Positions 17,961 through 54,927 of a stretch of 64,000 nt of DNA are shown piece by piece; position 1 is the first letter of the stretch, and each line of letters begins with the position of its first letter. The notes beneath the pieces were generated by a model. It was not told the DNA's origin. It did no database searches and saw nothing but the letters and a program-made list of their open reading frames with translations. Location: assembly GCA_964503465.1 (NCBI GenBank), contig CAZCYZ010000001.1, positions 195,731 to 259,730 of the forward strand. Reading direction: 5' to 3'. The translations under genes were made by a program, and so were the position numbers. This DNA is from an uncultured Gammaproteobacteria bacterium (GTDB lineage Bacteria; Patescibacteriota; Microgenomatia; UBA12405).

Positions 17961-18000
17961 CTCCCTGCCCTGTCAAGGGAAGGGTGGGGGAAGGGTTTTG
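17961..18000. repeat. G-rich hairpin element, copy 1 (CCCTGCC..TCAAGGGAAGGG + GGGGGAAGGGTTTTG)
   Basis: Shares the CAAGGGA(G/A)GGG arm and the G-tract+TTTTG tail with copies at 23128, 39714, 40081 and 54887. Confidence 0.6.
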
Positions 18001-18008
18001 TAACTCTT

Positions 18009-18194
18009 ATGGCCAATAAATCTAAAATTATTCGTGAATCTACCAAGTTAAAATACAAGGTACGTTATCATCATCGATGCGCCCTCTGTGGTCGTCCTCG
18101 CGCTTTCATTCGTCTTTTTGGCCTTTGTCGTTTATGTTTTCGAAAACTTGCCAACCAGGGTTCACTTCCTGGAGTTAAAAAAGCCAGTTGGTAA
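18009..18194 (+). CDS. rpsN: 30S ribosomal protein S14 type Z (zinc-binding)
   Basis: 61 aa with CALCGR...CRLC Cys4. Confidence 0.9.
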
Positions 18195-18199
18195 CAAAT

Positions 18200-18580
18200 A
18201 TGAACAACGCACCCCATCTTGATTTTCTTACTCGGCTCAAAAACGCTTACCTGGCTCACAACTCTACTGTTGTGGCTCCATCTTCAAAGCTCATTGTTTC
18301 TATGGCTGAGCTACTCAAACGCTTCCACCTTTTGGCAGATTACAAAATCACCGACGGTCAGATTACTGCCGAGTTGGTTTATCCAGGTGGTCTACCCGCA
18401 TTCACCAACGTTCGCATGTTCTCCACCCCCGGCCGTCGTTATTATCAGAAAGTTTTTTCACTTCCTTGGGGTAAAACTCCTAATTCTTTAATTATTATTT
18501 CCACTCCCCAGGGCCTCATGTCTCAAAAAGAGGCCAAGATTAAGGGGATTGGAGGCGAAATTTTCGCCGAACTTTATTAA
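18200..18580 (+). CDS. rpsH: 30S ribosomal protein S8
   Basis: Start at the ATG at 18200 (MNNAPHLDFLTRLKNA). Confidence 0.9.
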   Translation: MNNAPHLDFLTRLKNAYLAHNSTVVAPSSKLIVSMAELLKRFHLLADYKITDGQITAELVYPGGLPAFTNVRMFSTPGRRYYQKVFSLPWGKTPNSLIIISTPQGLMSQKEAKIKGIGGEIFAELY

Positions 18581-18585
18581 ACAAA

Positions 18586-19125
18586 ATGTCTCGGATCGGC
18601 AAACAAGTTATCAATATTCCCCAGGGTGTTACTGTGGCCGTCTCAGGGTCAACTATCAACGTCGCTGGCCCCAAAGGAGAGCTATCTCTACCTTTAGCTA
18701 CCAAGATCAAAGTTGAAGTTAAGGATAATCAAATTCTTGTTACTCGTTTAACAGATGATAAGCAAACACGTGCCAACCATGGTACTACCAGAGCCCACTT
18801 GGCCAATATGGTTCTTGGGGTTGTTAATCCCTGGAAAAAAGAAATGGAAATTCGCGGCACTGGTTACAAATTTGCCGTCAGCAATGACACTCTAACTATT
18901 ACTGCGGGTTATATCCACCCGGTCATTATCAAAGCTCCAAATGGTGTTCAGTTTGCTGTTTCCGAAGATACCAAACTAACTATCACCGGCTGCAACAAAG
19001 AGGTTGTTGGCCAAGTTGCTAGCAATATCCGAAAAGTTAGAAAACCCGAACCATACAAAGGTAAGGGTATTCGTTATCTTAATGAATTTATCAAACTAAA
19101 AGCCGGTAAAACGGCCAAAGCCTAA
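18586..19125 (+). CDS. rplF: 50S ribosomal protein L6
   Basis: MSRIGKQVINIPQGV. Confidence 0.95.
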   Translation: MSRIGKQVINIPQGVTVAVSGSTINVAGPKGELSLPLATKIKVEVKDNQILVTRLTDDKQTRANHGTTRAHLANMVLGVVNPWKKEMEIRGTGYKFAVSNDTLTITAGYIHPVIIKAPNGVQFAVSEDTKLTITGCNKEVVGQVASNIRKVRKPEPYKGKGIRYLNEFIKLKAGKTAKA

Positions 19126-19131
19126 ATTATT

Positions 19132-19482
19132 ATGACCACTCTTATCGTTACCAATCCAGCCCTCCGCCGCGCTCAACGTGTTCGAGCCAAACTTAAGACC
19201 AACATTACTCTTCCGCGGTTAAGTGTCTTCCGAAGCAATCAACATCTTTGGGTTCAAATTATTGATGATCGTAAGAGTATTACTTTGGTTAGCGCTTCAA
19301 CCAAGAACCTCAAAACCACCGGTACTAAAACTGAAAAAGCCTTAGCATTGGGTAAAGTTATTGCTAAAGCCGCTATTGACAAACATATTACTCAGGTTCG
19401 ATTTGACCGTGGAGCCTACAAATACCACGGCCGTGTTAAAGCTTTAGCTACTGGTGCCAGAGAAGCTGGTTTAAAATTTTAA
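19132..19482 (+). CDS. rplR: 50S ribosomal protein L18
   Basis: Conserved position; L18-like basic N-terminus. Confidence 0.9.
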   Translation: MTTLIVTNPALRRAQRVRAKLKTNITLPRLSVFRSNQHLWVQIIDDRKSITLVSASTKNLKTTGTKTEKALALGKVIAKAAIDKHITQVRFDRGAYKYHGRVKALATGAREAGLKF

Positions 19483-19491
19483 AACTGATCT

Positions 19492-19950
19492 ATGTATCAA
19501 CGTCAAGACAACACCCCCCCCAGTGAATTTTCTGAAAAAGTCATCCAAATCAAACGCGTCTCCAAAAAGACCAAAGGTGGCAATCAAATTTCCTTTACTG
19601 CTTTGGTTGTTTCGGGGGACAAAAAATCTCGGGTCGGTGTTAGTCTCGGACGCGCCAAAAACGTTGCTGATGCTATCAAAAAAGCTACTCAACGGGCTCG
19701 TAATAATCTCATTACTGTTCCAGTTGTTAACAACACCATTCCTTCCGAAGTTACTCTTAAGTTTAAAGGAGCCATTATTCTTATTCGTCCAGGCAAGCCG
19801 GGATCTGGGCTAATTGCTGGTGGACCCATTCGGGCTGTTGTCGAACTGGCCGGTGTCAAGGATATCGCCAGCAAAATCATCGGTTCCAAAAACAAATCTG
19901 TTAATGTTTGGGCTACTTATCAAGCTCTAAAGTTACTTGCTCAAAAGTAA
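19492..19950 (+). CDS. rpsE: 30S ribosomal protein S5
   Basis: IQIKRVSKKTKGG...GRAKNVADAIKKA. Confidence 0.95.
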   Translation: MYQRQDNTPPSEFSEKVIQIKRVSKKTKGGNQISFTALVVSGDKKSRVGVSLGRAKNVADAIKKATQRARNNLITVPVVNNTIPSEVTLKFKGAIILIRPGKPGSGLIAGGPIRAVVELAGVKDIASKIIGSKNKSVNVWATYQALKLLAQK

Positions 19951-19967
19951 TTATCATCTTAACACCT

Positions 19968-20390
19968 ATGGAAACTCTATCTAAGTTACCAAAAACAATC
20001 GCTAAGTCTCAAAAACGCCGTGGTCGCGGTATTGGTTCTGGTGTTGGTGGTCACACCACCGGTCGCGGGGCCAAAGGTGACAAGGTTCGTGGTAAAACCA
20101 AAATTACTTTTGATGGTACCAAAATTAAAAAAGGCTGGATCAAACGTCTACCTTTTCTTCGGGGTAAACATCGTAATCTCAAAAGAAATCTTTACCGAAT
20201 TTACAATCTTGGTCAAATTGATAAATTATTTTCCAAAAACCAAACTGTTAGTCCCGAAACTCTCAAATCAACCAATGTAAAAATTTTGGCCGGCGGTCAG
20301 CTTACCAAACCATTAACCTTTACTGGTCTTCATCTTTCAGCTTCTGCCCGAAAGCAAATTATTGCCCTTGGTGGTACTATCAGTCAATGA
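19968..20390 (+). CDS. rplO: 50S ribosomal protein L15
   Basis: Start at the ATG at 19968 (METLSKLPK...[10 protein letters not shown]); no L30 gene between S5 and L15. Confidence 0.9.
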
Positions 20391-21667
20391 ATCGTCTAGT
20401 CAAGTCTCTTTCCCTGTATTTTCAAGGTTTCAAAACCCCACTTCTCCAGAAAAAAATTACCCTTACCATTGGAATTCTAGTTCTTTTTCGTCTTATTGCT
20501 CACATTCCCGTCCCCGGTGTTAATCTGGAACTGCTCAAAAGTTTTTTTGCCCAAAATCAACTCTTATCGCTTCTAGACATTTTTTCCGGTGGTACTTTGG
20601 CTAACTTCTCAATTGCCGCCCTCGGTTTAAACCCCTATATTAACGCTTCAGTCATGTTTCAACTTTTGTCACTAGTTATCCCCGAACTTGAAGAACTAAG
20701 CAAGGAAGGGGAATACGGTCGTGCCAAAATCAATCAATATACTCGCCTGGCCACCATTCCCTTATCTTTAGTCCAATCTATTGGCATGTATAGTATTCTC
20801 CGATCCCAAAACATTATTACCAACCTCTCCCCGCTAACCCTCGTTGCCATGATGACCAGTATGTTAGCTGGCACCTTTATCATGATTTTTTTGGGCGAAC
20901 TTATTAATCAGTATGGTGTCGGTAATGGCGTTTCCGTTATCATTTTTGCCGGTATCGTTGCCCGGTTACCCATTGGTTTTATCCAAACTCTATCGGTTTC
21001 CGATTTTTCTAATCCTCAAACCATGATTAACTTAATTGTTTTTGCCGCTCTAGCTTTTGGGTTAGTTTTAGGAATTGTTACTGTTGAGGAAGCTATTCTT
21101 CGAGTCCCGATTGGTTATGCCAAACGCGCTCAAACCACTTATCTTCCAATCAAAGTTGACACTGCCGGAGTCATGCCAATTATTTTTGCCGTTTCTCTGG
21201 CCACTGCTCCCTCTTTTGTTGGTCAGTTTTTGTCCCGTCTTCCTCAAGCCGCTATTGCCCAACTAGGTCTCAATTTATCTCGTTGGTTTCGGGCCGATAG
21301 TTATGCCTATATTCTCTTCTATTTTGTTTTAGTTATTGGCTTTACTTTTTTCTATACCTCCGTAGTTTTCAAGCCCAAGGACATTGCCGACGAACTTCGC
21401 AAATCAGGTGGTTTTATTCCTGGTATCCGTCCTGGCATTTCCACCGAAAAGCGTCTTCAATATTTAATTACCCGGGTCATCGCTATTGGGTCAGTCTTTT
21501 TGGGCCTAATTGCCGTCACCCCCTCTATTGTTCAAAAAATAACTGGTATTACCACCCTTACTATCGGTGGAACCTCGGTTTTAATCGTTGTTTCTGTCAT
21601 TATCGAACTAACTCGTAAAATTGAAAACGTTGTTCAAACTTATAATTACGACAAACTGACTTATTAA
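20387..21667 (+). CDS. secY: Preprotein translocase subunit SecY
   Basis: 426 aa polytopic membrane protein in the canonical position after rplO. Confidence 0.95.
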
Positions 21668-22131
21668 TGAATCGTACCGTTACAGCTTTAGATGTGTTTC
21701 AAAACACCCATACTGTCACCACTGATCAACTCAAGTGGAGAGTTAGCGTTTACGGTGTTTTGTTGAAAGGTAATTCCATTATGTTTCAAAAAAATCCACA
21801 TTTTGATAAGTTGAGCTTACCAGGAGGGATGGTTGAATTCGGTGAAAATTTAGAAGAAGCACTTTGTCGGGAATTTTCAGAAGAAACTGGTTACAAGATT
21901 AAACCAACGAAATTTCTTCAGGCAAATCAACGCTATTTTGCCTCTAATGGGTCTTTCTTCCAAAATATTTGTCTCTATTACCTGGTTGAGCAACAGTCGG
22001 ACATTGTGGAGGCTATCAATAGCCCTGACAATGACAGTGTTCAAGCCATTTTTATCGATCTGAGATCAATCAGTTTGGATAATATTCAGCCCATGTTTCA
22101 GGATATTATTAAGACACACCTATGCCACTAA
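21667..22131 (+). CDS. NUDIX hydrolase
   Basis: Nudix box GGMVEFGENLEEALCREFSEETG (GX5EX7REUXEEXGU). Confidence 0.8.
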   Translation: MNRTVTALDVFQNTHTVTTDQLKWRVSVYGVLLKGNSIMFQKNPHFDKLSLPGGMVEFGENLEEALCREFSEETGYKIKPTKFLQANQRYFASNGSFFQNICLYYLVEQQSDIVEAINSPDNDSVQAIFIDLRSISLDNIQPMFQDIIKTHLCH

Positions 22132-22703
22132 GCTTATTTATCATCGGTCCCAGCGGTTGTGGTAAAAGTACTCAAGCTAAGTTGATTGCCGACAAGTACC
22201 ACTTGACTCATATCTCCATGGGTCAACTTTTTCGCGACGAAATTGCCGCCAATTCTGGTTTTGGTCTCGAGGCCAAGCCATACCTTGACCAAGGAATCTG
22301 GGTTCCTGATGACTTAACTTTTGATATTCTGGTTAACAAGCTAAATTCAATTGACACTCAAAATTTTATTATCGATGGTTTCCCCCGGGTGCTAAACCAA
22401 GGCAAAATTATGGAATATTTTCTTCGAAAGAAAAATCTTCCTTTCTCTCTTCTAATTCACCTTGACTTGTCCTTTGAGGATATTATGGCTCGTCGGCTAA
22501 AGTCTGGCGAGGAGTTTCAAGACCAAAGCAGAACCGATAATACCCCTGAGGCCATTGCTACTCGTCAAAAATCATATCTCGAAACCATTACTCCAATCCG
22601 GGAATATTTCGAATCCAAGGGTAAGTTTTTTAATGTTGACGGCAACCGTCCCGTCGAACCAATTTTTGAGGATATATGTTTGCAAATTAACAACCTTATA
22701 TGA
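22122..22703 (+). CDS. adk: Adenylate kinase
   Basis: IIGPSGCGKSTQAKLIA P-loop; position after secY. Confidence 0.9.
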   Translation: MPLSLFIIGPSGCGKSTQAKLIADKYHLTHISMGQLFRDEIAANSGFGLEAKPYLDQGIWVPDDLTFDILVNKLNSIDTQNFIIDGFPRVLNQGKIMEYFLRKKNLPFSLLIHLDLSFEDIMARRLKSGEEFQDQSRTDNTPEAIATRQKSYLETITPIREYFESKGKFFNVDGNRPVEPIFEDICLQINNLI

Positions 22704-23092
22704 TTTCTATTCCAGACCACATCAAAAAACTTATTGAAACTGTTCCTGTCTCATTCGCTTCAAGTACCAAAACTGGACAACCCAACAACATTGTCGTTTC
22801 TGACATCAAAGTTATTTCTCCAAATCAAATCATTATTGCCGATAATTTCTTTAACAAAACTAGACAGAATATTGATGTCAATCACTATGTGGCCTTAATT
22901 GCACATTCCATCGATTATCACCAGGCATATCAACTCAAGGGCACCTCAGAAGTGTTTACTGATCAGGATCATCGAGCACAATTGATTCAGCTGTTTGGAG
23001 ATGACCCCCGCTGGTCAAAAAAAGCCACTGTTATCATCACCGTTACTGAAATTTGGGATCTAGCCAATCCGGGACTAATTACCAAAGAATAA
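22700..23092 (+). CDS. Pyridoxamine 5'-phosphate oxidase-like (FMN-binding split-barrel) family protein
   Basis: 130 aa; overall PNPOx-like pattern; occupies the slot usually held by map. Confidence 0.4.
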   Translation: MISIPDHIKKLIETVPVSFASSTKTGQPNNIVVSDIKVISPNQIIIADNFFNKTRQNIDVNHYVALIAHSIDYHQAYQLKGTSEVFTDQDHRAQLIQLFGDDPRWSKKATVIITVTEIWDLANPGLITKE

Positions 23093-23127
23093 TAGTTTCA
23101 AATATGACTAGCAATTACAAATTAAAA

Positions 23128-23182
23128 TCCTCCCTTTCCTCAAGGGGAGGTGTCCCGACAAACGTCGGGACGGAGGGGTTTT
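23128..23182. repeat. G-rich hairpin element, copy 2 (double hairpin CCTCCC..GGGGAGG and TCCCGAC..GTCGGGA, then GGAGGGGTTTT)
   Basis: Same CAAGGGGAGG arm and GGGGTTTT tail as the other copies; lies between the PNPOx-like gene and infA. Confidence 0.55.
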
Positions 23183-23187
23183 AATCA

Positions 23188-23391
23188 ATGAAAGATCCAA
23201 CTGTTCGTGGTACGGTTACTGAAGTCCTCCCCAACCAGCTCTTTCGGGTTCAGCTCGAAGATGGCAAGATAATAATTGCCCATTTAGCTGGCAAACTTCG
23301 TCTCAACCACATCCGTTGCCTTGCTGGTGACGCCGTCACCCTCGTTCTAAGTCCAGAAGGGGACAAGGGTCGGATAGTTTACCGGGGGTAA
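23188..23391 (+). CDS. infA: Translation initiation factor IF-1
   Basis: S1-like OB fold, 67 aa, GKLRLNHIR. Confidence 0.9.
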   Translation: MKDPTVRGTVTEVLPNQLFRVQLEDGKIIIAHLAGKLRLNHIRCLAGDAVTLVLSPEGDKGRIVYRG

Positions 23392-23450
23392 AACCACAAT
23401 TTAGTCTTTGATATCCGCCTATTTTTAGGTTACAATACCAAAAGTCTTTT

Positions 23451-23567
23451 ATGAAGGTCAAATCAAGCGTAAAATTACGCTGTAAAAAATGCAAAATTGT
23501 TATCCGTCGAGGAGTTCGACGGGTCGTTTGTTCTATTAAGAAACATACCCAAAAACAGGGTTAATAT
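23451..23567 (+). CDS. rpmJ: 50S ribosomal protein L36 (38 aa; not in the supplied ORF track)
   Basis: Manual translation [37 protein letters not shown]; C-x2-C...C-x4-H zinc ribbon; preceded by a TTGATA-17-TACAAT promoter-like sequence at 23407-23435. Confidence 0.85.
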
Positions 23568-23573
23568 AAATAT

Positions 23574-23993: not shown

Positions 23994-23995
23994 TT

Positions 23996-24397: not shown

Positions 24398-24412
24398 TAT
24401 AACTTTCAATTT

Positions 24413-24441
24413 TATATTTTATTTAGAAATTAAAAATTAAA
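24413..24441. repeat. AT-rich repeat motif, copy immediately upstream of rpsD
   Basis: atattttatttagaaattaaaaattaaa; its 16-mer ttagaaattaaaaatt also occurs at 38591. Confidence 0.55.
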
Positions 24442-24445
24442 CCAA

Positions 24446-25084: not shown

Positions 25085-25093
25085 GAGCAAAAT

Positions 25094-26011: not shown

Positions 26012-26021
26012 GCTTCCAAAT

Positions 26022-26893: not shown

Positions 26894-26895
26894 AT

Positions 26896-27309: not shown

Positions 27310-27318
27310 AATAAACAC

Positions 27319-32970: not shown

Positions 32971-33004
32971 AATCCCCCTTGAACTATCTAAAGGGGGATT
33001 TTTG
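32971..33004 (+). terminator. Intrinsic terminator after hup
   Basis: aatccccctt-gaactatcta-aagggggatt hairpin followed by tttt. Confidence 0.8.
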
Positions 33005-35886: not shown

Positions 35887-37626
35887 ATGCAATCGGTAAA
35901 GGTTGTTCTAATCAACTTAACCAAGCCAAATACAGCCAAGGGTTCAGGCCTGGAAGCCTTAGGAATTGAAACTGTCGCAGGACACATTTTGGGGAAATTT
36001 GGCCCTATGATCAAGGTAAGACTGTTCGATGCCCAGCTTGATTCAATATCAAAAATAATATCTAAAGTACGCAATTTTAACCCGGATCTTGTGGGTATCT
36101 CGGTTAATATCGGAGCAATTTCTGCTGCCGGACTGATTACAAAAAAGTTAACTAAATATCAGAACCCAAAAATTGTTTTTGGGGCTCGGGGGGCTGAATT
36201 CTATCCAGATTATTTACCCTGCCCCATAAGAACAGAGTGTTTTATAGCTTCTGGGTGGGGGGAAATAGCTTTGGAAGATATCGTATCCTATATGATTGGG
36301 AAAAAAGACTTAAAGCAGATAAGAAACATCCTAAAATATAGCTCCCCAGATAGCAATCTCTGGCAATCTACACCATGGTCAAAACAAGCAATTTTAGATT
36401 TACGAAAATCATTTCCGCCCTATCGGGCCAACCTAGACAGATATCGAAAACATGAAATGGTGACCATGGAGACTCAAAGAGGTTGCCCATATGCAAAATG
36501 TTATTTTTGTCCTCGGCCACACTCCTTAAAAGAGATACATATTTTTCCGATTGAAAAGAAGTTGAGAGAGTTGGTGTATCTATCCAAAAAGAAAGTTCGA
36601 AGCATTCCCATCATAGACGAAGAGTTTTTTCTTGGAAAAAATGGAATTAGCAAAAAAATAAAGTTGATAGAAGGGATCATTAAATATAAAAACAGAGGAC
36701 AAATTCATCCAGACCTAAACTTTTGTGTTGACATGAGAGCTGATACTATCTGTACGGCTATTGATGAGTTTGGCGGACTTGGTAATTCTAGTAACCCTCT
36801 TAATTTACTCAAAAGTGCCGGGGTGAAATTTATCTTTGTTGGCATAGAGAGTCTTTCTCAAGGAATGCTTGATCATCTCAACAAGGGGACAACTGTTGAA
36901 CAGAATGTAAGAGCTGTAACAGCTTTAAGAGAAGTTGGAATAAAATTTCAAGCAGGTAGCCTCAGTCTGGCTCCATTGATGAGGTTTAATTGGCTCAAGG
37001 AATCAGTAATTAGAATCCGACAACAAAACTTAGCTGAGCTTGCCGATCCTTCCTTACCTTTGATTCTATTTTCCACCTCAGAATATTACAAAAGGTATTT
37101 CGTTGATCATAAAGACAATCAAGAACTTCTTGACCTAACAAATAAAAACTTACCTGCCCTCGACACCTTATCTGGAATTCCCTATAAATACAAAGATCCT
37201 AAAGTTCAGATTATTGCTGGGGTTCACGATTTCCATGAAAAAGAGATGTATTTGCTAATGAAGAAACTAAGAAGTATCAATGCAAAGTTAGTTTATGGTG
37301 GAGAGGAAAAATCCGATATATATATGGAAATTTGGAAGTGGTTGAGTTATGGGCGACTGGAAATTATTCTTTGGGGTATGGAGGAGTTATGTGGTGAGTT
37401 ATCTAAAACTGACTGGAGGAAAACTATCTCCATAAAGCATCGTCTGATTTTTAAAGAGATGCAAAGGAGAAAACAGTATATGGCAACATCGCTCTTGAGG
37501 TTTATTCTACGTTCAAAACAGTCACTAAATCATAATCAAAAAAGATTGGTTGAGGTAAGTGATCTACTTAAGATAACCAAGGAGGTAACCAGCTCTACCC
37601 AATCGGTATATCGATTCGAAAGTTAA
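35887..37626 (+). CDS. B12-binding-domain-containing radical SAM protein (class B-like), function unknown
   Basis: N-terminal cobalamin-binding-like domain (VVLINLTKPN...DLVGISV), Fe-S motif RGCPYAKCYFC (CX4CX2C), Elp3-like FIFVGIESLSQGMLDHLNKG motif, long C-terminal extension without SPASM cysteines; AGA/ATA-rich codon usage unlike neighbouring genes. Confidence 0.75.
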   Translation: MQSVKVVLINLTKPNTAKGSGLEALGIETVAGHILGKFGPMIKVRLFDAQLDSISKIISKVRNFNPDLVGISVNIGAISAAGLITKKLTKYQNPKIVFGARGAEFYPDYLPCPIRTECFIASGWGEIALEDIVSYMIGKKDLKQIRNILKYSSPDSNLWQSTPWSKQAILDLRKSFPPYRANLDRYRKHEMVTMETQRGCPYAKCYFCPRPHSLKEIHIFPIEKKLRELVYLSKKKVRSIPIIDEEFFLGKNGISKKIKLIEGIIKYKNRGQIHPDLNFCVDMRADTICTAIDEFGGLGNSSNPLNLLKSAGVKFIFVGIESLSQGMLDHLNKGTTVEQNVRAVTALREVGIKFQAGSLSLAPLMRFNWLKESVIRIRQQNLAELADPSLPLILFSTSEYYKRYFVDHKDNQELLDLTNKNLPALDTLSGIPYKYKDPKVQIIAGVHDFHEKEMYLLMKKLRSINAKLVYGGEEKSDIYMEIWKWLSYGRLEIILWGMEELCGELSKTDWRKTISIKHRLIFKEMQRRKQYMATSLLRFILRSKQSLNHNQKRLVEVSDLLKITKEVTSSTQSVYRFES

Positions 37627-39161: not shown

Positions 39162-40118
39162 ATGTTACCTATGAAACCATCCCTCAAGAAACTTCCTAAG
39201 CTTCTTATTATTTCCGGTCCGACGGCTACAGGGAAAACCGCTTTGGCGGTCAAATTGGCTCAAAAATTTAATGGCCAACTTATTTCTGCTGACTCTCGTC
39301 AAATTTATCGTGGTATGGACGTTGGTACCGGCAAAGACCATCCCACCAACACCCCTATTCACCTTGTTGATATTATCAACCCCAACCAATTATTTTCCGC
39401 CGCTCAATACCACCAACTTGCCCTCAACATAATCCACCAAGTTTGGCAAGCCAACAAGCTCCCAATTATTGTCGGCGGTACTGGTCAATATATCGATGCC
39501 ATTATTAATCCCCAGCCTACCTTTGTTGTCCCACCCAACCACATCTTAAGGTTTTTTCTAAACAGATTCCCCCTATCATTCCTTCAACTTATTTTAAAAA
39601 CTTTGGACTTTAAAACCTTTAACTCGCTCAATCATTCCGATTCCTCCAACCCCCACCGCTTGATCAGAAAAATTGAAATTAATATATCAAATAAAATTAG
39701 CCGCTCCCCCTCCATTCTTCAAGGGAGGGGGATGGGGGGTGGGTTTGACGTTCTCCACATATCGTTAACCGCCCCCAACCAATTTTTGTACCAGCGTATC
39801 GACCAACGTGTCGACCAAAGACTCAAACAAGGCCTATTTGACGAAATCAAAATTTTAATCAGAAAATATCACTGGTCCGACCCAGGCCTCAACTGCCTTG
39901 CTTACAAAGAATTCAAAACTGGTTTTACTCAAAAAAATGTTGACACTTGGCGGTTTCACGAACACTCCCTGGCTCGCCGTCAAAAAACATGGTTCAAAGC
40001 TCAACCTAACATCAATTTCATTGACATTACCAAACCAAATTTCGAACCACAAATAATTGCCTTAATTTCTAACTTTATTTCCCCCCTTCTTCAAGGGGGG
40101 AAGACAGGGGGGTTTTGA
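39162..40118 (+). CDS. miaA: tRNA dimethylallyltransferase
   Basis: LLIISGPTATGKTALAVKLA P-loop, ADSRQIYRGMDVGTGK; contains G-rich hairpin elements in-frame at 39714-39756 and at its 3' end (40081-40116). Confidence 0.85.
   Translation: MLPMKPSLKKLPKLLIISGPTATGKTALAVKLAQKFNGQLISADSRQIYRGMDVGTGKDHPTNTPIHLVDIINPNQLFSAAQYHQLALNIIHQVWQANKLPIIVGGTGQYIDAIINPQPTFVVPPNHILRFFLNRFPLSFLQLILKTLDFKTFNSLNHSDSSNPHRLIRKIEINISNKISRSPSILQGRGMGGGFDVLHISLTAPNQFLYQRIDQRVDQRLKQGLFDEIKILIRKYHWSDPGLNCLAYKEFKTGFTQKNVDTWRFHEHSLARRQKTWFKAQPNINFIDITKPNFEPQIIALISNFISPLLQGGKTGGF
39714..39756. repeat. G-rich hairpin element, copy 3 (inside the miaA ORF)
   Basis: ccgctccccctccattcttcaagggagggggatggggggtgggtttg; translated in-frame as SPSILQGRGMGGGFD. 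Confidence 0.6.
40081..40116. repeat. G-rich hairpin element, copy 4 (3' end of miaA)
   Basis: ccccccttcttcaaggggggaagacaggggggttttg supplies the last codons and stop of miaA. Confidence 0.6.
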
Positions 40119-41122
40119 TGGTACAATCAATCATGAAACCTCAACGGGTCGAAATTTCCTACAAAACCATTGTCTTTACTGTAGTTTTTCTCATTGCTCT
40201 TTATGTTCTCTGGCAGGTCAGAAGTCTAATTTATCTTATCCTTTTTTGCTTTGTTTTCATGGAAGCTCTCAACCCTACTGTTAGCCGACTAGAATCCCTC
40301 AAAATTCCCCGCCCTTTTGCTATTCTTTTCCTTTATGCAGTCATTTTGGGCTTTTTCTCCTTCACCATTGCTGGAGTTTTCCCCATATTGGTTGAGCAAA
40401 CTACCAGTCTCATCAAAACCCTTCCCGGCACCTTAGAAAATCTCAACTTTTTTGGCGTCTCCGCCGTTGACCTATCATCTCAACTCAAAATTGTTGAGGG
40501 TCTGCCCGAAAATATTGCCAAAACCGTCATCTCTCTCTTCTCCAATATTTTTTCTGCTTTTGTCATTCTTGTCATTACCTTTTACCTTCTGATGGAAAGG
40601 AGGAATATTGCCAACTATGGCTTTCATCTTTTTGGTACTTCCGGCAAACAAAAAACTATTGAGATTCTTGAACAGCTTGAAAACCGTCTTGGTAGTTGGG
40701 TCAACGCCGAAGTTTTTCTAATGATAACTATTGGTCTTCTTTCGTATCTTGGTTATCTTCTTCTTGGTCTTAACTATACTGTTCCCTTGGCTATTTTGGC
40801 AGGGATGCTTGAAATTGTCCCCAATATCGGGCCAACTGTTGCTACTGTTGCTGCCGCCTTAGTTGGATTAACTATCTCCCCCTTGGTGGCCGTTCTGGCT
40901 GTAGTTTGGGGGATCATTGTTCAACAAGTCGAGAACAACTTCATCGTTCCGCGGGTAATGAGGTCAACTGTCGGTCTTAACCCTCTAGTCACTATTCTTC
41001 TTTTGGCCACTGGTGCCAAGCTAGGTGGAGTAGTTGGAGCCGTCTTGGCTATCCCTGTCTATCTTACAGTTGAAACTATTTTCAAAGTTGTCACCCAACC
41101 CCCCGCCAGGAGCAAAAAATAA
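40115..41122 (+). CDS. AI-2E family transporter (UPF0118/PerM-like)
   Basis: 8-TM protein with LEIVPNIGPTVATVAAALVGL motif. Confidence 0.8.
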   Translation: MMVQSIMKPQRVEISYKTIVFTVVFLIALYVLWQVRSLIYLILFCFVFMEALNPTVSRLESLKIPRPFAILFLYAVILGFFSFTIAGVFPILVEQTTSLIKTLPGTLENLNFFGVSAVDLSSQLKIVEGLPENIAKTVISLFSNIFSAFVILVITFYLLMERRNIANYGFHLFGTSGKQKTIEILEQLENRLGSWVNAEVFLMITIGLLSYLGYLLLGLNYTVPLAILAGMLEIVPNIGPTVATVAAALVGLTISPLVAVLAVVWGIIVQQVENNFIVPRVMRSTVGLNPLVTILLLATGAKLGGVVGAVLAIPVYLTVETIFKVVTQPPARSKK

Positions 41123-41404: not shown

Positions 41405-41438
41405 ACCAAATTAAACCCCCCCGAGTTCATCGAGGGGG
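41405..41438 (-). terminator. Intrinsic terminator (CCCCCCGAG-TTCA-TCGAGGGGG) for the zinc-ribbon gene
   Basis: Hairpin followed on the minus strand by TTTAATTT; same hairpin type as the one at 49921-49941. Confidence 0.55.
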
Positions 41439-49434: not shown

Positions 49435-49516
49435 AGCCTATTTTACATCCTTTCGGTGTCGCACTGACTGATCCCTTTTGTGATAACATTAGACAACTTA
49501 ATAATTTGATAAAACT

Positions 49517-49903
49517 ATGTCAAACATTGTTGAAGTTAGGATCAGAGATTATATTCCTGAAGAGGCAAACCAAACAATTGCAACCGAGTTTATGGGAGCT
49601 CTGAATACCGCCGAACAACAGTTTATGGACGAACAACAATTAAACCTAGGACCTATTGTTGCTCTCCTTAATCGCAACATAAATTCCCCGAAGGACTACG
49701 AAGTTGCTCAAGCAATGGTTAAAGCCTATCAAACAGCGGCTGACTTATATCACGCTCAAGGTAGTCAACTTTATCAGGATGACTTCATTTCACAACAAAG
49801 GGTTGACTTTCGACTTCACGCCCTCCAAGCGGCTATGGCTATATCGGGTCTACCAAGCTACTCCCGGACCGATTTTCAAACATCTCAAATCCCTCAGCTT
49901 TAA
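49517..49903 (+). CDS. Hypothetical protein (128 aa)
   Basis: Intact ORF followed by the terminator hairpin at 49921-49941. Confidence 0.4.
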   Translation: MSNIVEVRIRDYIPEEANQTIATEFMGALNTAEQQFMDEQQLNLGPIVALLNRNINSPKDYEVAQAMVKAYQTAADLYHAQGSQLYQDDFISQQRVDFRLHALQAAMAISGLPSYSRTDFQTSQIPQL

Positions 49904-49914
49904 TTCGAGACAAC

Positions 49915-49946
49915 CAAAAACCCCCCGAGCTTGTCGAGGGGTTTTA
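49915..49946. terminator. Bidirectional intrinsic terminator between convergent genes (CCCCCCGAG-CTTG-TCGAGGGG)
   Basis: Hairpin flanked by A-run upstream and T-run downstream. Confidence 0.6.
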
Positions 49947-49970
49947 GTTTCTAACTTGAATTTCTTCAAA

Positions 49971-50237
49971 TTAAGCTTGTGGTTTATCAGGTCGGGGCAA
50001 GGCCTCTTTGACGGCGATGTTTCTTCCATCCTGTTCGGTTCCATCCAAAGCTTTCATAGCTTCAGCGGCCGCTTCTTCAGTCTCAAACTCCACAAAGGCA
50101 AAGCCCTTGCTTCGTCCGGAGAACTTATCTTTAACCACTACTGCCGACACAATGGTCCCAAATGGGGCGAATATCGCCTGCAATTGGTCGTCGGTCATGT
50201 TGTAGGACAAATTTCCTACGAATAGTTTTTTAGCCAT
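49971..50237 (-). CDS. RRM-domain RNA-binding protein
   Basis: RNP-2 LFVGNL and RNP-1 KGFAFVEF motifs. Confidence 0.9.
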   Translation of the reverse strand: MAKKLFVGNLSYNMTDDQLQAIFAPFGTIVSAVVVKDKFSGRSKGFAFVEFETEEAAAEAMKALDGTEQDGRNIAVKEALPRPDKPQA

Positions 50238-50338
50238 TTGGCAAAAACTCTCCTTTTACCTAAAGTAAATAATATGACCAGGAATATAGGCAAAACCTCC
50301 TGGTCAAGGAAATTATAGCACATTTAGTACAATTAAGG

Positions 50339-51931
50339 GTGAAACTTGTTTTGCGTTCTAACACTCTTATTGACAGTCGCTATTCTTCCCATCAGCTTCA
50401 GGACTTGCTTCTTAGTCTTCGCCATCTTGAACTTAAGCCAGTAATACCATCATTTTCCCTCCCAAAGATCAGTCTTGACCCCTCCCAGTCAATTCTTATC
50501 TATGGTGACTACGATGTTGACGGTATCACCGCTACCGCCATTCTTTGGCAGGCATTATCCCGTCATGGCCTCCGGGTTACTCCATTTATTCCCCATCGAG
50601 AGCATGATGGTTATGGCTTCAAGGCTGATAGTTTTTTCCGGTTTCAGCAAGAAAAGGGGATTACTTTTGACACTTTAATTACTGTTGACAACGGTATTGT
50701 TGCTATCTCTGAATTCAAAAAACTAAAAAACATCAAAATTATCGTTGTTGACCACCACTTGGCTGATGCCAATATTGACAATCTACGGTCTATGGTTGAT
50801 AGCCTAATCCATAGTCCCGACTTATCAGCTGCTGGTTTGGCTTACTTTATTGCCCAACAATTTGATCCTCATCCTGATCTTGGTTTAGCCGCTTTGGGTA
50901 CCGTCGCTGACTGTTTGCCACTTTTGGGAGTCAATCGCTCAATTGTTTATCATGGCCTTAGACAGTTGCGTCTCAATCCTTCCCCCGGTATCAAGAAACT
51001 GATCGACGTTAGCCGAGCCAAAATTGACTCTCTTTCGACCTATGACCTCGGTTTTCTTCTTGGACCACGCATTAACGCTGTTGGTCGTTTATCCGACTCC
51101 ATGGATGCTCTCCGGCTCCTTTGTGCCTCTAACCTTGCCACTGCTGGTAAATATGCCACTGTTTTGAATCAGCACAACCAAGATCGCCAGATCCTTCAGC
51201 AACGGGACCTGGTCAGCGCCGAAGAACAGATTGTAAGGGCGGACCACGGTGTCCGCCCCACCTCCATTTTTGTCACCGGTGACTACAACCCCGGTATTAT
51301 TGGCCTCATCGCTGGTCGTCTCACCGAAAAGTATTACCTACCTTCAATTGTCATCGCCCTAAACGGTGACGTTGCCAAGGGTTCTTGTCGATCCATCAAA
51401 GAACTAAACATAATTGAAACTCTCCGCCAAACCTCCGATTTGTTGGTTGACGTTGGTGGCCACCCCGCAGCTGCGGGATTTAGTATCAAGACCATTAATA
51501 TCCCTAAGTTTCAACAAAAGATTACCAACATTGTCAATCAAAAACTCAATTCCCAAATTCTTGAACCAACTCTGGAGGTCGATGCTGAAATGAAACTCGT
51601 GGCAGTTAACGTCAACAATATCAAAGTCATTAAACAATTTGAGCCTTTCGGTGTTGGTAATCCTGAACCACTATTTTTGTTCAAAAATATTCGGGTAGTT
51701 TCCAAGAAATTATTGGGTACCAACCAAGACCACCTCAAGCTAAAACTTGATGATCCAGAAACCCAAAAGATAGAAAACATATCCACCGATGCTATTGCTT
51801 TCAAAAAAGGGGACTATGATGCCAAAATAAAAGTGGGGGATTTAATATCCCTGATTGCCAAGCTTGATCTTAATATCTGGAACGGCATCACCATTTCTCA
51901 GCTTGTTGTTAAAGACATAATTTTGGAATAA
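50339..51931 (+). CDS. recJ: Single-stranded-DNA-specific exonuclease RecJ (DHH/DHHA1), GTG start
   Basis: ILIYGDYDVDGITATAIL, VDHH motif, GGHPAAAG DHHA1. Confidence 0.85.
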   Translation: MKLVLRSNTLIDSRYSSHQLQDLLLSLRHLELKPVIPSFSLPKISLDPSQSILIYGDYDVDGITATAILWQALSRHGLRVTPFIPHREHDGYGFKADSFFRFQQEKGITFDTLITVDNGIVAISEFKKLKNIKIIVVDHHLADANIDNLRSMVDSLIHSPDLSAAGLAYFIAQQFDPHPDLGLAALGTVADCLPLLGVNRSIVYHGLRQLRLNPSPGIKKLIDVSRAKIDSLSTYDLGFLLGPRINAVGRLSDSMDALRLLCASNLATAGKYATVLNQHNQDRQILQQRDLVSAEEQIVRADHGVRPTSIFVTGDYNPGIIGLIAGRLTEKYYLPSIVIALNGDVAKGSCRSIKELNIIETLRQTSDLLVDVGGHPAAAGFSIKTINIPKFQQKITNIVNQKLNSQILEPTLEVDAEMKLVAVNVNNIKVIKQFEPFGVGNPEPLFLFKNIRVVSKKLLGTNQDHLKLKLDDPETQKIENISTDAIAFKKGDYDAKIKVGDLISLIAKLDLNIWNGITISQLVVKDIILE

Positions 51932-52073
51932 AATAAACCAAAGCGTTGAGGTGCCAACAACACCAAGCTTCGGGAAGAAAAGCCAATCACTTATTAGAAC
52001 CCGACAGAAGTCAAACTGTAAAACAGACACCGTGTGTCGGCAACGGAGCACGAAAAACTAATAGTTTTTTGTT

Positions 52074-52099
52074 ATCCCGCACACGCGGGATTATTTTTT
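52074..52099 (+). terminator. Terminator-like hairpin 15 nt upstream of the aspS start codon
   Basis: atcccgcacacgcgggat followed by tatttttta. Confidence 0.5.
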
Positions 52100-52113
52100 A
52101 TATATACTAAAAT

Positions 52114-53934
52114 ATGGAAAGGACAGTAATTTCTGACACTATTTCTGGGATTGGTCAGGAAGTTCGGATCAAAGGTTGGGTGGTTTCAGTTCGAAGTCAC
52201 GGTCAAATAGTCTTTGCCGACATTCGTGATCGTAGTGGTCTTCTTCAAATTGTTGGCGACAAATCATTAAACGAACTTCGTCAAGAATATGCTGTCGAGA
52301 TTGTCGGTCTGGTTCGTCCTCGTGATCCCAAATATTTCAACCCCAAACTTGTTACTGGTCAAATTGAGCTTGAAGTCAAAAGTCTGACGGTTCTGGCCAA
52401 ATCACGCGATCTCCCTTTTGATATTCACCAACCAGACCTCAATGTTTCTCTCCCCACTCTTCTTGATCATCGTTCGGCTTCCCTTCGTAATCTTAAAATC
52501 CAGGATGTATTTACTGTCCAATCAACCATTGTTAATGCCTTCAGAAATTTTTTACAAAGCCAAAACTTCAAGGAAATTTTTGTCCCTACCATTGTTGCTG
52601 GCTCTACTGAGGGAGGATCAGAAGTTTTTCCCGTCGATTATTTTGGCTACCAGGCTTTTTTGGCTCAAAGTCCTCAACTCTACAAACAAGTTCTTACTTC
52701 AGTCTTCGAAAGAGTGTTTACTATCGCTCACGCCTATCGGGCCGAACCTAGCGTCACCACTCGTCATTTGACCGAATACGTTGGGCTCGACGTTGAAATG
52801 GGATTTATTGATAGTTGGCTTGATGTCCTTGGGGTTGCCGATGCCACTGTCAAAGCCATTTTTGAATTGGTTGGTCAACTCCATCAGGACATTCTTGACA
52901 AGTATCAAGCCACTCTCCCCAAAACTATTGCCAACACCCCCCGAATCAAACTAAAAGATGCCCTGGAGTTAATTTACAAACGCACTGGCCGTGACGTTCG
53001 TCAGGAATTAGACATGGACCCAGAAGGTGAACGGGAGATTTGCCGCTGGTCCTTGGAGGAATTTGGTAGTGATCTTGTTTTCATTACCCATTTTTACACC
53101 AAAAAACGTGCCTGGTATTCATTCGCTGATCCCGAAAACCCCAACGAAACCCTTACTTTCGATCTCATTGGTCGAGGAGTCGAGTGGATCAGTGGTGGCC
53201 AACGGATTCATGACTATGACGAATTTAGACAAAAACTAATTTCTCGTGATCAGAATCCTGATGATTTTGAATCACCTTATGGCCAAACCTTTAAATACGG
53301 TATGCCGCCTGAAGGTGGTTTCTGCATTGGTTTGGAGCGAGTCACTCAAAATATTCTTGGCTTAGAAAATATTCGCCAAGCTTCATTGTTCCCCCGCGAC
53401 ATGGAACGTGTCGATGGTCGTTTATCGGTTATTGGTAAAAGAAAAACTCTTACTACCAAAACCGATCTTCACCAAAAACTGTTAAGTTTCCTCAACGAAA
53501 AATTAATAAAATACCAACACTTGGAGCATGAGGAAGTCAAAACATCAGAGGCGGCCGCTGCTGCCCGTGGTACCAGGCTCGAACAGGGAGCCAAGGCATT
53601 GATTATGTACGCCGACAGCCAACCAATATTGGTTGTTCTTTCGGCCGCTAGTAAGCTCGATAGTGATGAGTTCAAAAAACAATTTGGTGTCAAAGATCTT
53701 CGTATGGCTACCCCCGATGAAGTCGAGACGGTCTCCACTGTTCCCATCGGCGCTGTCCCTCCTTTTGGTAACCTCATTAACTTGGTTACTTACGTTGACG
53801 AGGGTTTGTTGGTCAACAAAGAAATCGCTTTCAATGCTGGTTCACGTCGGCATTCAGTTATAATCAAATCTAGTGATTTCGTCAATGCCGTCCGTCCGAA
53901 AAAAGGCCGCTTCTGTCAAGCCACCAAAGACTAA
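52114..53934 (+). CDS. aspS: Class IIb aspartyl/asparaginyl-tRNA synthetase (archaeal-type core) fused to a C-terminal YbaK/ProX-like aminoacyl-tRNA deacylase domain
   Basis: OB-fold anticodon-binding N-terminus; LAQSPQLYKQ and motif-2 YRAEPS...; the C-terminal roughly 170 aa align to YbaK (KALIMY/LAVAV, GAVPPFG ~ GGISPLG, IAFNAGSRRHSVII ~ IYVSGGKRGLDIEL). Confidence 0.75.
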   Translation: MERTVISDTISGIGQEVRIKGWVVSVRSHGQIVFADIRDRSGLLQIVGDKSLNELRQEYAVEIVGLVRPRDPKYFNPKLVTGQIELEVKSLTVLAKSRDLPFDIHQPDLNVSLPTLLDHRSASLRNLKIQDVFTVQSTIVNAFRNFLQSQNFKEIFVPTIVAGSTEGGSEVFPVDYFGYQAFLAQSPQLYKQVLTSVFERVFTIAHAYRAEPSVTTRHLTEYVGLDVEMGFIDSWLDVLGVADATVKAIFELVGQLHQDILDKYQATLPKTIANTPRIKLKDALELIYKRTGRDVRQELDMDPEGEREICRWSLEEFGSDLVFITHFYTKKRAWYSFADPENPNETLTFDLIGRGVEWISGGQRIHDYDEFRQKLISRDQNPDDFESPYGQTFKYGMPPEGGFCIGLERVTQNILGLENIRQASLFPRDMERVDGRLSVIGKRKTLTTKTDLHQKLLSFLNEKLIKYQHLEHEEVKTSEAAAAARGTRLEQGAKALIMYADSQPILVVLSAASKLDSDEFKKQFGVKDLRMATPDEVETVSTVPIGAVPPFGNLINLVTYVDEGLLVNKEIAFNAGSRRHSVIIKSSDFVNAVRPKKGRFCQATKD

Positions 53935-54871
53935 GTCTATTCCTCCAAAGGTCATTAATCTTTTCCTTTGTGGCTTAATTTTTTGTCTATGTCTGGTCTG
54001 GTTACCTGCCAGCCCTCTTTGGACCATCTATCCCCATCCTAAAATACCCAGTTCCAATATTCTTTCTTCAGGTCTTTACAATTACCGCCATCCTGCTATC
54101 CCTTCTCTTAAATCAACCACTTCTCCCTCCTTATTAACTTCCAGTTATATTCTTCTTGATGTTGACACCAACACTGTCCTTCTTAGTAAAAATTCTCACC
54201 TCAAAACATTTCCCGCTTCTATCACCAAGTTGGCCACTGCCCTCACCGCCCTCAATCTCTACCCTCTCGACGAGATTATTACTATCACCGATCCCTACAA
54301 AGATGGCAAGGTAATGGATTTAAAGCCTGGGGAAAAAATTACAGTTCGATCTCTGGTTACTGGACTTTTGGTCTACTCCGCCAACGATGCTGCCTACAAT
54401 TTAGCCAAATATCATTCCCGTGGTATTACTGGCTTTGTTGACGAAATGAATCTTTTAATGTCGCGTTACCAGCTTAAGGATACCAATTTTGTCAATTATG
54501 ACGGTATTCACCAACCTAATCATTATTCTACTGTTTACGATCTTTCCCAATTAGCCCGTTTAGCTATTAAAAATCCCATTATCACTGACGTGGTCAAATC
54601 AACCAAACTTACTGTTACTGATGTTGAAGGCAAAATTGCCCACCCCCTCTTGTCAACAAACGAGTTACTGGAGGTTGTCCCCGAAATTGAAGGTCTCAAA
54701 ACCGGTTGGACTCCCGAAGCTGGGGGTTGTTTTGTTGGCCTCATCAACATTAACGGCCATCGTCTTATTAGTGTCGTTACTCAAAGTCAGGATCGTTTTG
54801 TCGATACCAGAACTCTCGTTACCTGGGCCAAAGAAAACATCGTTTGGATGCAATATCCAGTAAAAATCTAA
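53873..54871 (+). CDS. dacC: D-alanyl-D-alanine carboxypeptidase (serine peptidase S11 / PBP5 family)
   Basis: SxxK SITKLAT, SxN SANDAA, KTG LKTGWT; signal-anchor; start uncertain (ATGs at 53873 and 53885 overlap the aspS 3' end). Confidence 0.8.
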   Translation: MISSMPSVRKKAASVKPPKTKSIPPKVINLFLCGLIFCLCLVWLPASPLWTIYPHPKIPSSNILSSGLYNYRHPAIPSLKSTTSPSLLTSSYILLDVDTNTVLLSKNSHLKTFPASITKLATALTALNLYPLDEIITITDPYKDGKVMDLKPGEKITVRSLVTGLLVYSANDAAYNLAKYHSRGITGFVDEMNLLMSRYQLKDTNFVNYDGIHQPNHYSTVYDLSQLARLAIKNPIITDVVKSTKLTVTDVEGKIAHPLLSTNELLEVVPEIEGLKTGWTPEAGGCFVGLININGHRLISVVTQSQDRFVDTRTLVTWAKENIVWMQYPVKI

Positions 54872-54886
54872 AAATAAATCGGTCAT

Positions 54887-54927
54887 TCCCCTCCTTTTTT
54901 CAAGGGAGGGGTTAGGGGTGGGTTTTG
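54887..54927. repeat. G-rich hairpin element, copy 5 (bidirectional terminator between convergent genes)
   Basis: ccctcctttttttcaagggaggggttaggggtgggttttg; four G-runs G3-A-G4-TTA-G4-T-G3. Confidence 0.65.

Follow-up and report, generated by a model that had tools for sequence, protein, structure and literature searches.

Dispersed G-rich elements in a Shapirobacteria-like genome as probable class II intrastrand triplex repeats

Results and discussion

Identification of a family of probable triplex repeats

A stretch of 64,000 nucleotides (nt) from an uncultured bacterium, deposited as a gammaproteobacterium and placed by GTDB in the Patescibacteriota (Microgenomatia; UBA12405), carries five copies of a short G-rich element, which are probably members of a small dispersed class II purine-motif intrastrand triplex repeat of the type known as BoxC, PIT or TMECO. 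The stretch (hereafter the window: GenBank assembly GCA_964503465.1, contig CAZCYZ010000001.1, positions 195,731 to 259,730) is numbered from its first letter; its five copies are termed W1 to W5, and loci fetched from other genomes are designated by L and a number. All five copies lie on the plus strand (17963-17996, 23129-23180, 39705-39745, 40079-40114 and 54888-54924) and are built in one order: a C-rich arm is joined by a loop to its G-rich complement, and a short spacer then leads to a second G-rich tract and TTT(T)G. An earlier reading of the bare letters (the original prediction) had listed five copies of this architecture, in the rplE/rpsN spacer, before infA, twice within the miaA open reading frame (ORF) and between convergent genes; all five were found again, with the gene positions as it had given them.

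A scanner for a pyrimidine arm, loop, purine arm, loop and mirror strand, set to stems of 8 or more triplets with up to 2 of them imperfect, retrieved exactly W1 to W5 on the plus strand, against 0.03 sites per shuffled window (60 dinucleotide shuffles), and one weak site on the minus strand, for which the shuffles give 0.17. In the scanner's registers all five copies comprise 9-12 triplets, a loop 1 of 4 nt and no more than 2 imperfect triplets. A stricter version of the scan gave 3 observed sites versus 0.025 in 200 shuffles, and a pattern derived from three of the copies was matched 0.00 times over 100 shuffles. Of the 10 occurrences of the core TCAAGGG in the window, half (5/10) are within the elements. 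The earlier description of the genome as AT-rich is only roughly right, the window having a GC content of 41.9%, with a plus strand that carries most genes and contains only 17.8% G. The G tracts of the elements are conspicuous because this strand is so poor in G, and clusters of three or more G runs are found on it at three places only, all of them among these elements. The copies are also dense in comparison with relatives (5 per 64 kb here versus approximately 8-9 unique copies per 841 kb). These observations support W1 to W5 as a true sequence family that extends beyond shared structure, as had been proposed, and further copies are seen in relatives and in other phyla (see below). The strand asymmetry of the window as a whole is strong, the mostly coding plus strand having 24.1% C versus 17.8% G and 30.5% T versus 27.6% A; a paper on another Microgenomates genome (PMC7143001) reportedly describes an unusual strand composition disparity.

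The second G-rich tract mirrors the purine arm

Alignment of the copies with those of relatives showed that the second G-rich tract mirrors the G arm instead of repeating it directly. In W5 the arm 5'-AAGGGAGGGG is mirrored by the tract 5'-GGGGTGGGTT, and in W2 GGGGAGG is mirrored by GGAGGGG. When the tract is read antiparallel to the arm, the partner of a G is always a G-C pair, and that of an A or T is an A-T pair. The three strands covary between copies: CCCCTCC / GGGAGGGG / GGGGTGGG in W5, ..GGGGAGG / GGAGGGG.. for the two purine strands of W2, TCTCCCTT / AAGGGAGA / AGAGGGAT in L044 (position 12503; arm AAGGGAGA, tract AGAGGGAT) and TCCCTCTT / AAGAGGGA / AGGGAGAT in L067 (position 789; arm AAGAGGGA, tract AGGGAGAT). 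The relation was counted over the unique copies from all fetched loci that have a purine arm with an off-centre A, a feature left unspecified by the pattern with which the copies were collected. The base that interrupts the third tract lay at the mirrored position in 46 copies and at the direct position in only one, with 10 ties; this base was T in 46 copies, A in seven and C in four. A coarser scan in other phyla gave 62 mirrored versus 29 direct cases, which is less clean because many of the arms there are nearly symmetric.

Four classes of intrastrand triplex motifs were defined by Holder et al. (2015, Nucleic Acids Research; PMC4666352), of which class II comprises pyrimidine, purine and reverse-Hoogsteen stems. 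The class II order (5' pyrimidine stem, loop, purine stem, loop, reverse-Hoogsteen stem) is present in 5/5 copies, and the permitted triplets with an antiparallel third strand (G·G-C, A·A-T and T·A-T) account, in registers refined by hand, for 9/9, 9/9, 11/11, 9/9 and 10/10 third-strand positions in W1 to W5, respectively. Stems of this class have 6-15 triplets with at most one mismatched, and those of W1 to W5 have 9, 9, 11, 9 and 10 triplets with 1, 1, 1, 0 and 1 mismatches. The class limits loops to 1-6 nt: W1, W3, W4 and W5 lie within this range (loop 1 of 4 nt, loop 2 of 3-4 nt), and W2, with a loop 2 of 21 nt, lies outside it. As in the class definition, the motifs are commoner than in scrambled sequence (5 vs 0.03 and 3 vs 0.025 in the two scans described above).

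Anatomy and gene context of the five copies

W1 lies in the 85-nt rplE/rpsN spacer and consists of a pyrimidine arm (17963-17971, CCCTGCCCT), loop 1 (17972-17975, GTCA), a purine arm (17976-17984, AGGGAAGGG), loop 2 (17985-17987, TGG) and the third, reverse-Hoogsteen strand (17988-17996, GGGAAGGGT). It has 9 triplets, with one central G.A Watson-Crick mismatch and a third strand that fits at 9/9 positions. W2 lies 7 nt before the infA ATG (23188), and its pyrimidine arm (23129-23137, CCTCCCTTT), loop 1 (23138-23141, CCTC) and purine arm (23142-23150, AAGGGGAGG) are separated from the third strand (23172-23180, GGAGGGGTT) by an extended loop 2 (23151-23171). These 21 nt pair with themselves as an 8-bp hairpin (GTCCCGAC AAAC GTCGGGAC); the stem of 9 triplets includes one T.G, and the third strand is a 9/9 mirror. 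The same layout with a hairpin in loop 2 recurs in relatives, at L044 14316 (minus strand), L044 14735 (plus strand) and L056 11494 (minus strand).

W3 is situated in frame within the miaA ORF (39162-40118), where it spans codons ~180-198 and encodes SPSILQGRGMGGGF; the Pfam IPPT domain of MiaA runs unbroken across the site. In its best register, which was read by hand, it has a pyrimidine arm at 39706-39716 (CCCCCTCCATT), loop 1 at 39717-39720 (CTTC), a purine arm at 39721-39731 (AAGGGAGGGGG), loop 2 at 39732-39734 (ATG) and a third strand at 39735-39745 (GGGGGTGGGTT) that fits at 11/11 positions, with one A.G mismatch in the stem. W4 is found at the 3' end of the same ORF, followed by TGA at 40116-40118. 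It has a perfect register of 9/9 triplets with 0 mismatches, formed by a pyrimidine arm (40080-40088, TCCCCCCTT), loop 1 (40089-40092, CTTC), a purine arm (40093-40101, AAGGGGGGA), loop 2 (40102-40105, AGAC) and a third strand (40106-40114, AGGGGGGTT). W5 lies between a Peptidase_S11 gene (53873-54871) and a convergent minus-strand ORF (54930-55973). Its pyrimidine arm (54888-54897, CCCCTCCTTT) is followed by loop 1 (54898-54901, TTTC), a purine arm (54902-54911, AAGGGAGGGG), loop 2 (54912-54914, TTA) and a third strand (54915-54924, GGGGTGGGTT) that fits at 10/10 positions, and there is one stem mismatch.

Relationship to the BoxC/PIT/TMECO class

Approximately 10^6 candidate triplex motifs have been reported in 5246 genomes, with the G/C-rich ones being strongly over-represented in Enterobacteria and Cyanobacteria (PMC4666352). 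The Escherichia coli member of the class, which is variously called BoxC, PIT or TMECO, has the form CCCTCNCCC N3-6 GGGNGAGGG N3 GGGNGAGGG, and earlier work on the PIT element (Hoyne et al. 2000; Hoyne and Maher 2002) is cited by the same authors (PMC4666352). Nuclear magnetic resonance (NMR) and circular dichroism (CD) show that the TMECO single strand forms a stable triplex and not a G-quadruplex (G4); the element has neither promoter nor terminator activity and no strand bias, is always intergenic, sometimes occurs in inverted pairs and is associated with local sequence variability of the genome (PMC4666352). The elements of the window resemble TMECO in having a 9-10-nt pyrimidine arm, a 3-6-nt loop, a purine arm, a loop of about 3 nt and a mirror third strand of G, A and T, in following the same triplet rules over about 35 nt with one mismatched triplet tolerated, and in being multi-copy, variably present between relatives and devoid of promoter- or terminator-like geometry; promoter and terminator scans of the window likewise flagged no element. 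The loop 2 of W5 is TTA, as in TMECO type A.

Several differences are also apparent. The arm sequences of W1 to W5 differ from those of TMECO, and no stretch of the window fits the literal TMECO pattern (0 matches). The host, as identified by its MiaA homologs, is a Candidatus Shapirobacteria-like member of the Microgenomates in the candidate phyla radiation (CPR), whereas the hosts of TMECO are proteobacteria. TMECO is always intergenic, but the reading frame of miaA contains W3 and W4; it sometimes occurs in inverted pairs, of which the window copies form none; and the 21-nt hairpin loop 2 of W2 contrasts with the 1-6-nt loops of the class definition. The points that are unusual with respect to the known class are thus the copies in reading frames and the variant with a hairpin in loop 2; otherwise the elements exemplify a known kind and point to no new mechanism. 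A literature search of incomplete coverage recovered no paper that ties triplex motifs to CPR bacteria, and one with the literal element sequences recovered nothing relevant.

Insertion history and effects on neighboring genes

The original prediction had named a REP/MITE-like mobile mini-element as one possibility and had suggested a comparison of presence and absence between genomes. The family does behave as a small dispersed element that has been inserted, in that 4/5 copies are missing at the orthologous sites of relatives. W1 is absent from about 60 metagenomic relatives, which have rplE/rpsN spacers of ~3-50 nt versus the 85 nt of the window, and W2 is absent from about 25 relatives, in which infA is preceded by a short AT-rich leader. 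L001, L002 and L004 lack W4, which is an insertion of ~45 nt. In L001, the closest MiaA relative (74% identity), miaA ends with ...AAAAATGGTACAATCAATCATGAAACC, and its stop overlaps the start of a gene for an AI-2E-family transporter. The window keeps TGGTACAATCAATCATGAAACC directly behind W4, where the 22 nt that follow the element are those of L001, and a relic of the ancestral miaA end (40119-40136, plus strand; TGGTACAATCAATCATGA, encoding WYNQS and a stop) is situated downstream of the new stop. As the ancestral end is retained directly behind W4, the inserted segment can be delimited to about 45 nt. The TGA brought by W4 now terminates miaA, giving the C-terminus ISPLLQGGKTGGF, and the orthologous start of the transporter, by comparison with L001, is the ATG at 40133-40135 inside the relic. 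Gene callers place this start at an ATG at 40118 that overlaps the new miaA stop.

W5 is absent in L209 and L210 (relatives at 85% and 81% identity), where the ends of the two convergent genes share 22 nt; at the corresponding site the window is longer by ~70 nt, and its Peptidase_S11 protein has a shortened C-terminus. The same organism is represented in a Logan assembly of SRR8925802 (L207), made independently from short reads, with 0 mismatches to the window over 9104 nt. Its position 1 corresponds to window position 54897, and as the contig begins inside loop 1 of the element, the independent assembly must have broken within W5. Look-ups with exact protein sequences, aimed at extending the window, yielded short Logan contigs with 1.3 kb of additional sequence. 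By comparison with their relatives, then, W1, W2, W4 and W5 are recent, lineage-specific insertions, two of which created new stop codons.

W3 has a different history, as it is found at the same miaA site in L001 and in L004/L005, and in a decayed form in L002. It is an old copy that has been kept in many Shapirobacteria. A peptide signature of the W3 type (P..G.G..GG-F/I) was detected in 30/115 Shapirobacteria MiaA proteins by a crude test, and by eye more of the linkers are W3-like, perhaps up to about half. The linker that harbors it follows the RKIE motif (window codons ~172-198) and is between 17 and 48 residues long in different Shapirobacteria. It contains triplex-type peptides such as SPLSKGDLEGL and PPFQGGIKGGF, and in other lineages other recurring repeat-like peptides (RLLRRFTPRNDVIASEAWQS, DCRLKTEDCRLK and NYKLKIKNY), so that it looks like a hotspot for repeat insertions. 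A parallel is offered by the Rickettsia palindromic elements (RPE), reportedly described by Ogata and colleagues in 2000 as selfish repeats that lie in frame in protein-coding genes. Like W3, the RPE keep the frame, occupy a tolerant surface or linker region and add a short peptide; they are plain palindromes of 100-150 bp, unlike the ~35-40-nt triplex-type elements described here.

Copies in other genomes and the nature of the copied unit

A copy in L025 (12884-12917) has a near-identical 34-nt core to W1, with the same arms, central G.A mismatch and loop 1, such that only loop 2 differs. It is found at a site that is non-homologous to that of W1, with unrelated flanks, and the L5 proteins of the two genomes are 71% identical. 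As the cores match while the flanks are unrelated, the copied unit is the ~34-nt core itself, and no longer mobile unit or common flanks were found among W1, W5 and L025. With respect to the genes on either side, several of the copies in relatives run antisense (L002 19169, L025 12884, L044 14316 and L056 11494).

A scan of species-representative genomes with a pattern derived from W3 to W5 gave at least 120 matches. Among the matches listed are the Sphingomonadaceae, many Cyanobacteria, Rhodocyclales, Peribacteria, Gastranaerophilales, Acidobacteriota, Chloroflexi and others, and many of those listed occur as several per locus or as inverted pairs and extend beyond the pattern in the way that a triplex predicts (...GGGGG-T-GGG-T). 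In the Sphingomonadaceae and Cyanobacteria the core is almost identical to that of W3 and W5, although part of this likeness (TTCAA, five arm bases and GGGG) is imposed by the search pattern; examples that resemble W3 and W5 are the sphingomonad CCCCCTCCCTTTCAAGGGAGGGGGTTGGGGGTGGGTG, CCTCCCTTTTCAAGGGAGGGGCTAGGGGTGGGTT in Gastranaerophilales (L139) and CCTCCATTTCAAGGGAGGGTTGGGGTGGGTT in Peribacteria (L106). The sphingomonad and cyanobacterial repeats also share with the W family the mirror third strand and the T opposite the A of the arm. They differ from it in the sphingomonad tail TGGGTG, in the cyanobacterial ATC and upstream GGGGGACTTTGA, and in their frequent arrangement as inverted pairs. 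The usual position of the cyanobacterial copies, after GGGGGACTTTGA and before ATC, suggests a longer lineage-specific unit. Viral contigs yielded 28 stretches with the general pattern and none of the W1 subtype, and these regions are probably of prophage or host origin. Pairs of inverted copies, 55-115 nt apart, were observed in L089, L111, L134 and L205 (Sphingomonadaceae) and in L212, L214, L227 and L229 (viral contigs); TMECO of E. coli similarly forms inverted pairs of its type A and type B.

The likeness across phyla might reflect either common descent or convergence under the rules of triplex formation. A bolder proposal, which we regard as unlikely, is that the ~34-nt triplex core is a mobile unit that has spread horizontally across phyla (the CPR, Sphingomonadaceae, Cyanobacteria and others), with its folded single strand serving as the substrate of a copying or insertion activity, with insertion in frame and with concerted evolution within each genome. 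Such a unit would account for the agreement of the miaA copy with the intergenic subtype of its own genome, and, if it exists, the tiny CPR genomes would offer the simplest background for finding the responsible enzyme.

Alternative explanations

The layout of the elements initially recalls an intrinsic terminator or attenuator that switches between two exclusive RNA hairpins, with the C arm paired either to the first G arm or to the second G tract followed by U's, and both the terminator and the two mutually exclusive hairpins were part of the original prediction. The elements share with Rho-independent terminators a GC-rich stem-loop with a T run nearby, W5 lies between convergent genes, the minimum-free-energy RNA fold of W4 pairs the distal G tract, and all five window copies are sense-oriented. 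They differ from them in the covarying purine tract between the stem and the T run, and in their antisense and intragenic copies. The T run starts 10-35 nt past the proximal stem, against the rule of 0-2 nt after a GC-rich stem, and a terminator scan flags 0/5 copies, yet flags ordinary terminator-like hairpins of the window, such as that at 41438-41416 (minus strand); in the hairpin at 32973-32998, by contrast, the T run follows the stem directly. The orientation relative to genes is mixed in the relatives, where the four antisense copies named above oppose their neighbors, one copy has been retained within a coding region, and PIT/TMECO has no terminator activity in E. coli (PMC4666352). The alternative hairpin would need a direct repeat, and the T in the second tract would oppose a pyrimidine in it but gives T·A-T in a triplex. 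This model was rejected on the mirror relation of the second tract (46 mirrored, 1 direct, 10 ties), and the copies at L044 12503 and L067 789 are unable to form the second hairpin at all. Folding z-scores at the RNA level are weak (-0.8 to -3.2), with folds that are inconsistent between copies. The suggestion of a recognized regulatory RNA motif found no support in Rfam, which at gathering threshold matched only RNase P in the whole window and nothing at the elements, with a permissive scan over W3 and W4 giving chance-level matches only. A terminator or attenuator is, on this evidence, very unlikely. The elements might alternatively act in translation, with the C arm mimicking the anti-Shine-Dalgarno sequence, the G arm being Shine-Dalgarno-like but sequestered, and the second G tract, left free, providing the ribosome-binding site of the next gene. 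In line with this, W1, W2 and W4 precede start codons, the GGAGGGG of W2 ends 9 nt before the infA ATG, and GAGGGA at L044 12503 is found 7 nt before the rplO ATG. However, the spacing to the start is inconsistent (9, 13 and ~20 nt), relatives translate the same genes from AT-rich leaders that have no Shine-Dalgarno-like sequence, W3 is intragenic, W5 is flanked by two gene ends, and relatives have several antisense copies, all of which renders a role in translation exceedingly improbable.

Two further explanations concern DNA structure and mobility. A functional G4, formed in DNA or RNA by the four G runs in competition with the C-rich arm, is favored by the canonical pattern (four runs of G3+ with N1-7 between them) with short loops in W1, W3 and W5, which have G4Hunter scores of 1.9-2.5, by the fact that 4/6 plus-strand sites of the window with a G4Hunter score of at least 1.5 are elements, and by the G runs of 3, 4-5, 4-5 and 3 in many Sphingomonadaceae copies among the matches listed. 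The pattern noted in the original prediction is thus real in these three copies, but it is missing in W2 and W4. L044 12503 and L067 789 also lack it: they have only two G3 runs, so that they are unable to form a G4, and yet they keep the three-strand covariation. A G4 as the defining feature of the family was therefore rejected, on account of W2, W4 and several copies of relatives that have no such motif. A G4 moreover leaves the mirrored A/T position and the constant complementary C arm unexplained, and the 18 imino signals in the NMR spectrum of TMECO correspond to a triplex and not to a G4 (PMC4666352). As an account of the family a G4/hairpin switch hence appears quite unlikely. The remaining explanation compares the elements with repetitive extragenic palindromic (REP) sequences, their REPIN doublets or miniature inverted-repeat transposable elements (MITEs), in which a hairpin is recognized and mobilized in trans by a transposase (e.g. 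RAYT, or a Y1 HUH enzyme) and the third tract is incidental. REP/REPIN elements are mobilized by RAYT transposases, and like the elements described here they are short (20-40 bp), GC-rich, hairpin-forming, dispersed, mostly extragenic and variably present between strains. The clean presence or absence at four sites, the near-identical cores of W1 and L025 at non-homologous sites of two genomes, the inverted pairs in Sphingomonadaceae and viral contigs, and the break of a short-read assembly within W5, as at repeats, would all fit. REPs, however, are plain imperfect palindromes that have no mirror third strand, typically form inverted doublets and are accompanied by a RAYT gene; the window has no inverted doublets, its five copies being unpaired and in the same orientation, and neither a RAYT gene nor another transposase gene was found among the 20 ORFs checked in the window, which is 64 kb of a contig of at least 470 kb. 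The defining traits of MITEs (terminal inverted repeats and a target-site duplication, over 50-500 bp) were not seen, the shared unit being ~34 nt. As the third strand covaries with the arms, it is not incidental, and a transposase-driven element of the REP or MITE kind seems decidedly unlikely. This explanation concerns the mechanism of copying, and is compatible with the triplex description without replacing it.

Certain observations also weigh against a selfish triplex repeat. In vivo footprinting with dimethyl sulfate in E. coli detected no stable triplex, and in vitro the duplex prevails once the complementary strand is present (PMC4666352). W1, W3 and W5 are strong G4 candidates by their G4Hunter scores, and a G4 could compete with the triplex. 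The sense orientation of all five copies, together with the location of three of them 7-18 nt before start codons, makes an effect at the level of RNA or translation possible. The T run often extends 1-2 bases beyond what the triplex needs. Neither target-site duplications nor terminal repeats were seen at the junctions of W4, W2 and W5, and a Pfam scan of 20 window ORFs found no mobilizing enzyme or transposase.

Proposed mechanism and implications

By analogy with the NMR and CD results on TMECO oligonucleotides, the single strands of W1 to W5 are expected to form class II triplexes. We propose that when the G-rich plus strand becomes single-stranded, in replication, transcription or repair, the 5' pyrimidine arm would pair with the purine arm to give a hairpin closed by the 4-nt loop, and the 3' tract of G, T and A would then fold back antiparallel in the major groove to form G·G-C, A·A-T and T·A-T reverse-Hoogsteen triplets. 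The first two T residues of the terminal TTTT would accordingly be part of the third strand and not a terminator tail. Purine-motif triplexes do not form in RNA (PMC4666352), and the elements are likely to act at the level of DNA as selfish or neutral repeats, which constitute local structural obstructions and indel-prone sites instead of regulating genes. The ~34-nt core has been copied and inserted into AT-rich spacers and gene ends in the lineage; these insertions have supplied new stop codons to miaA and the Peptidase_S11 gene, and one old copy has stayed in frame in the variable MiaA linker. The visible effects here are the rewritten gene ends and the peptide added to MiaA.

Repeats of the BoxC/PIT/triplex-motif kind, which abound in many bacteria, first became known ~25-30 years ago, and their function and spread are still unexplained (PMC4666352). 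The window extends the class to CPR bacteria with minimal genomes and offers four dated, clean insertions within otherwise highly conserved operons, two of which rewrote gene ends. It also indicates that copies can persist for long inside a reading frame, with the MiaA linker as the hotspot. The variant with a hairpin in loop 2 would escape searches with limited loop lengths, such as ITxF. In practical terms, the elements mislead gene callers, as in the transporter start and the miaA end, and break short-read assemblies.

Additional features of the window and of related loci

The two other plus-strand sites with a G4Hunter score of at least 1.5 (36169-36200 and 36253-36277) are situated in a radical-SAM/B12-binding ORF (35887-37626); both lack a C-rich partner arm and fall outside the family. 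Ordinary GC-rich hairpins that have no third strand are found at 32973-32998, 41416-41438 and 49917-49945. The first of these (TCCCCCTT..AAGGGGGA TTTTT) resembles a plain terminator, and the other two both contain CCCCCCGAG.T..TCGAGGGG, with a similar hairpin in L001 at 2853-2872. [quoted passage not shown]

In two relatives (L047 at ~950 and L056 at ~7780) another small GC hairpin (CCCCTTCGGGG) is found in frame at the end of rplE, where it extends ribosomal protein L5 at its C-terminus. Here too, then, a hairpin repeat occupies the end of a gene in this group. In the Shapirobacteria genome GCA_000992725.1 (L002/L003, positions 1-9000) a phage-like island that is not found in the window is located directly upstream of ychF-miaA, and codes for a serine recombinase, a terminase-like GpA_ATPase, helix-turn-helix proteins and a methyltransferase.

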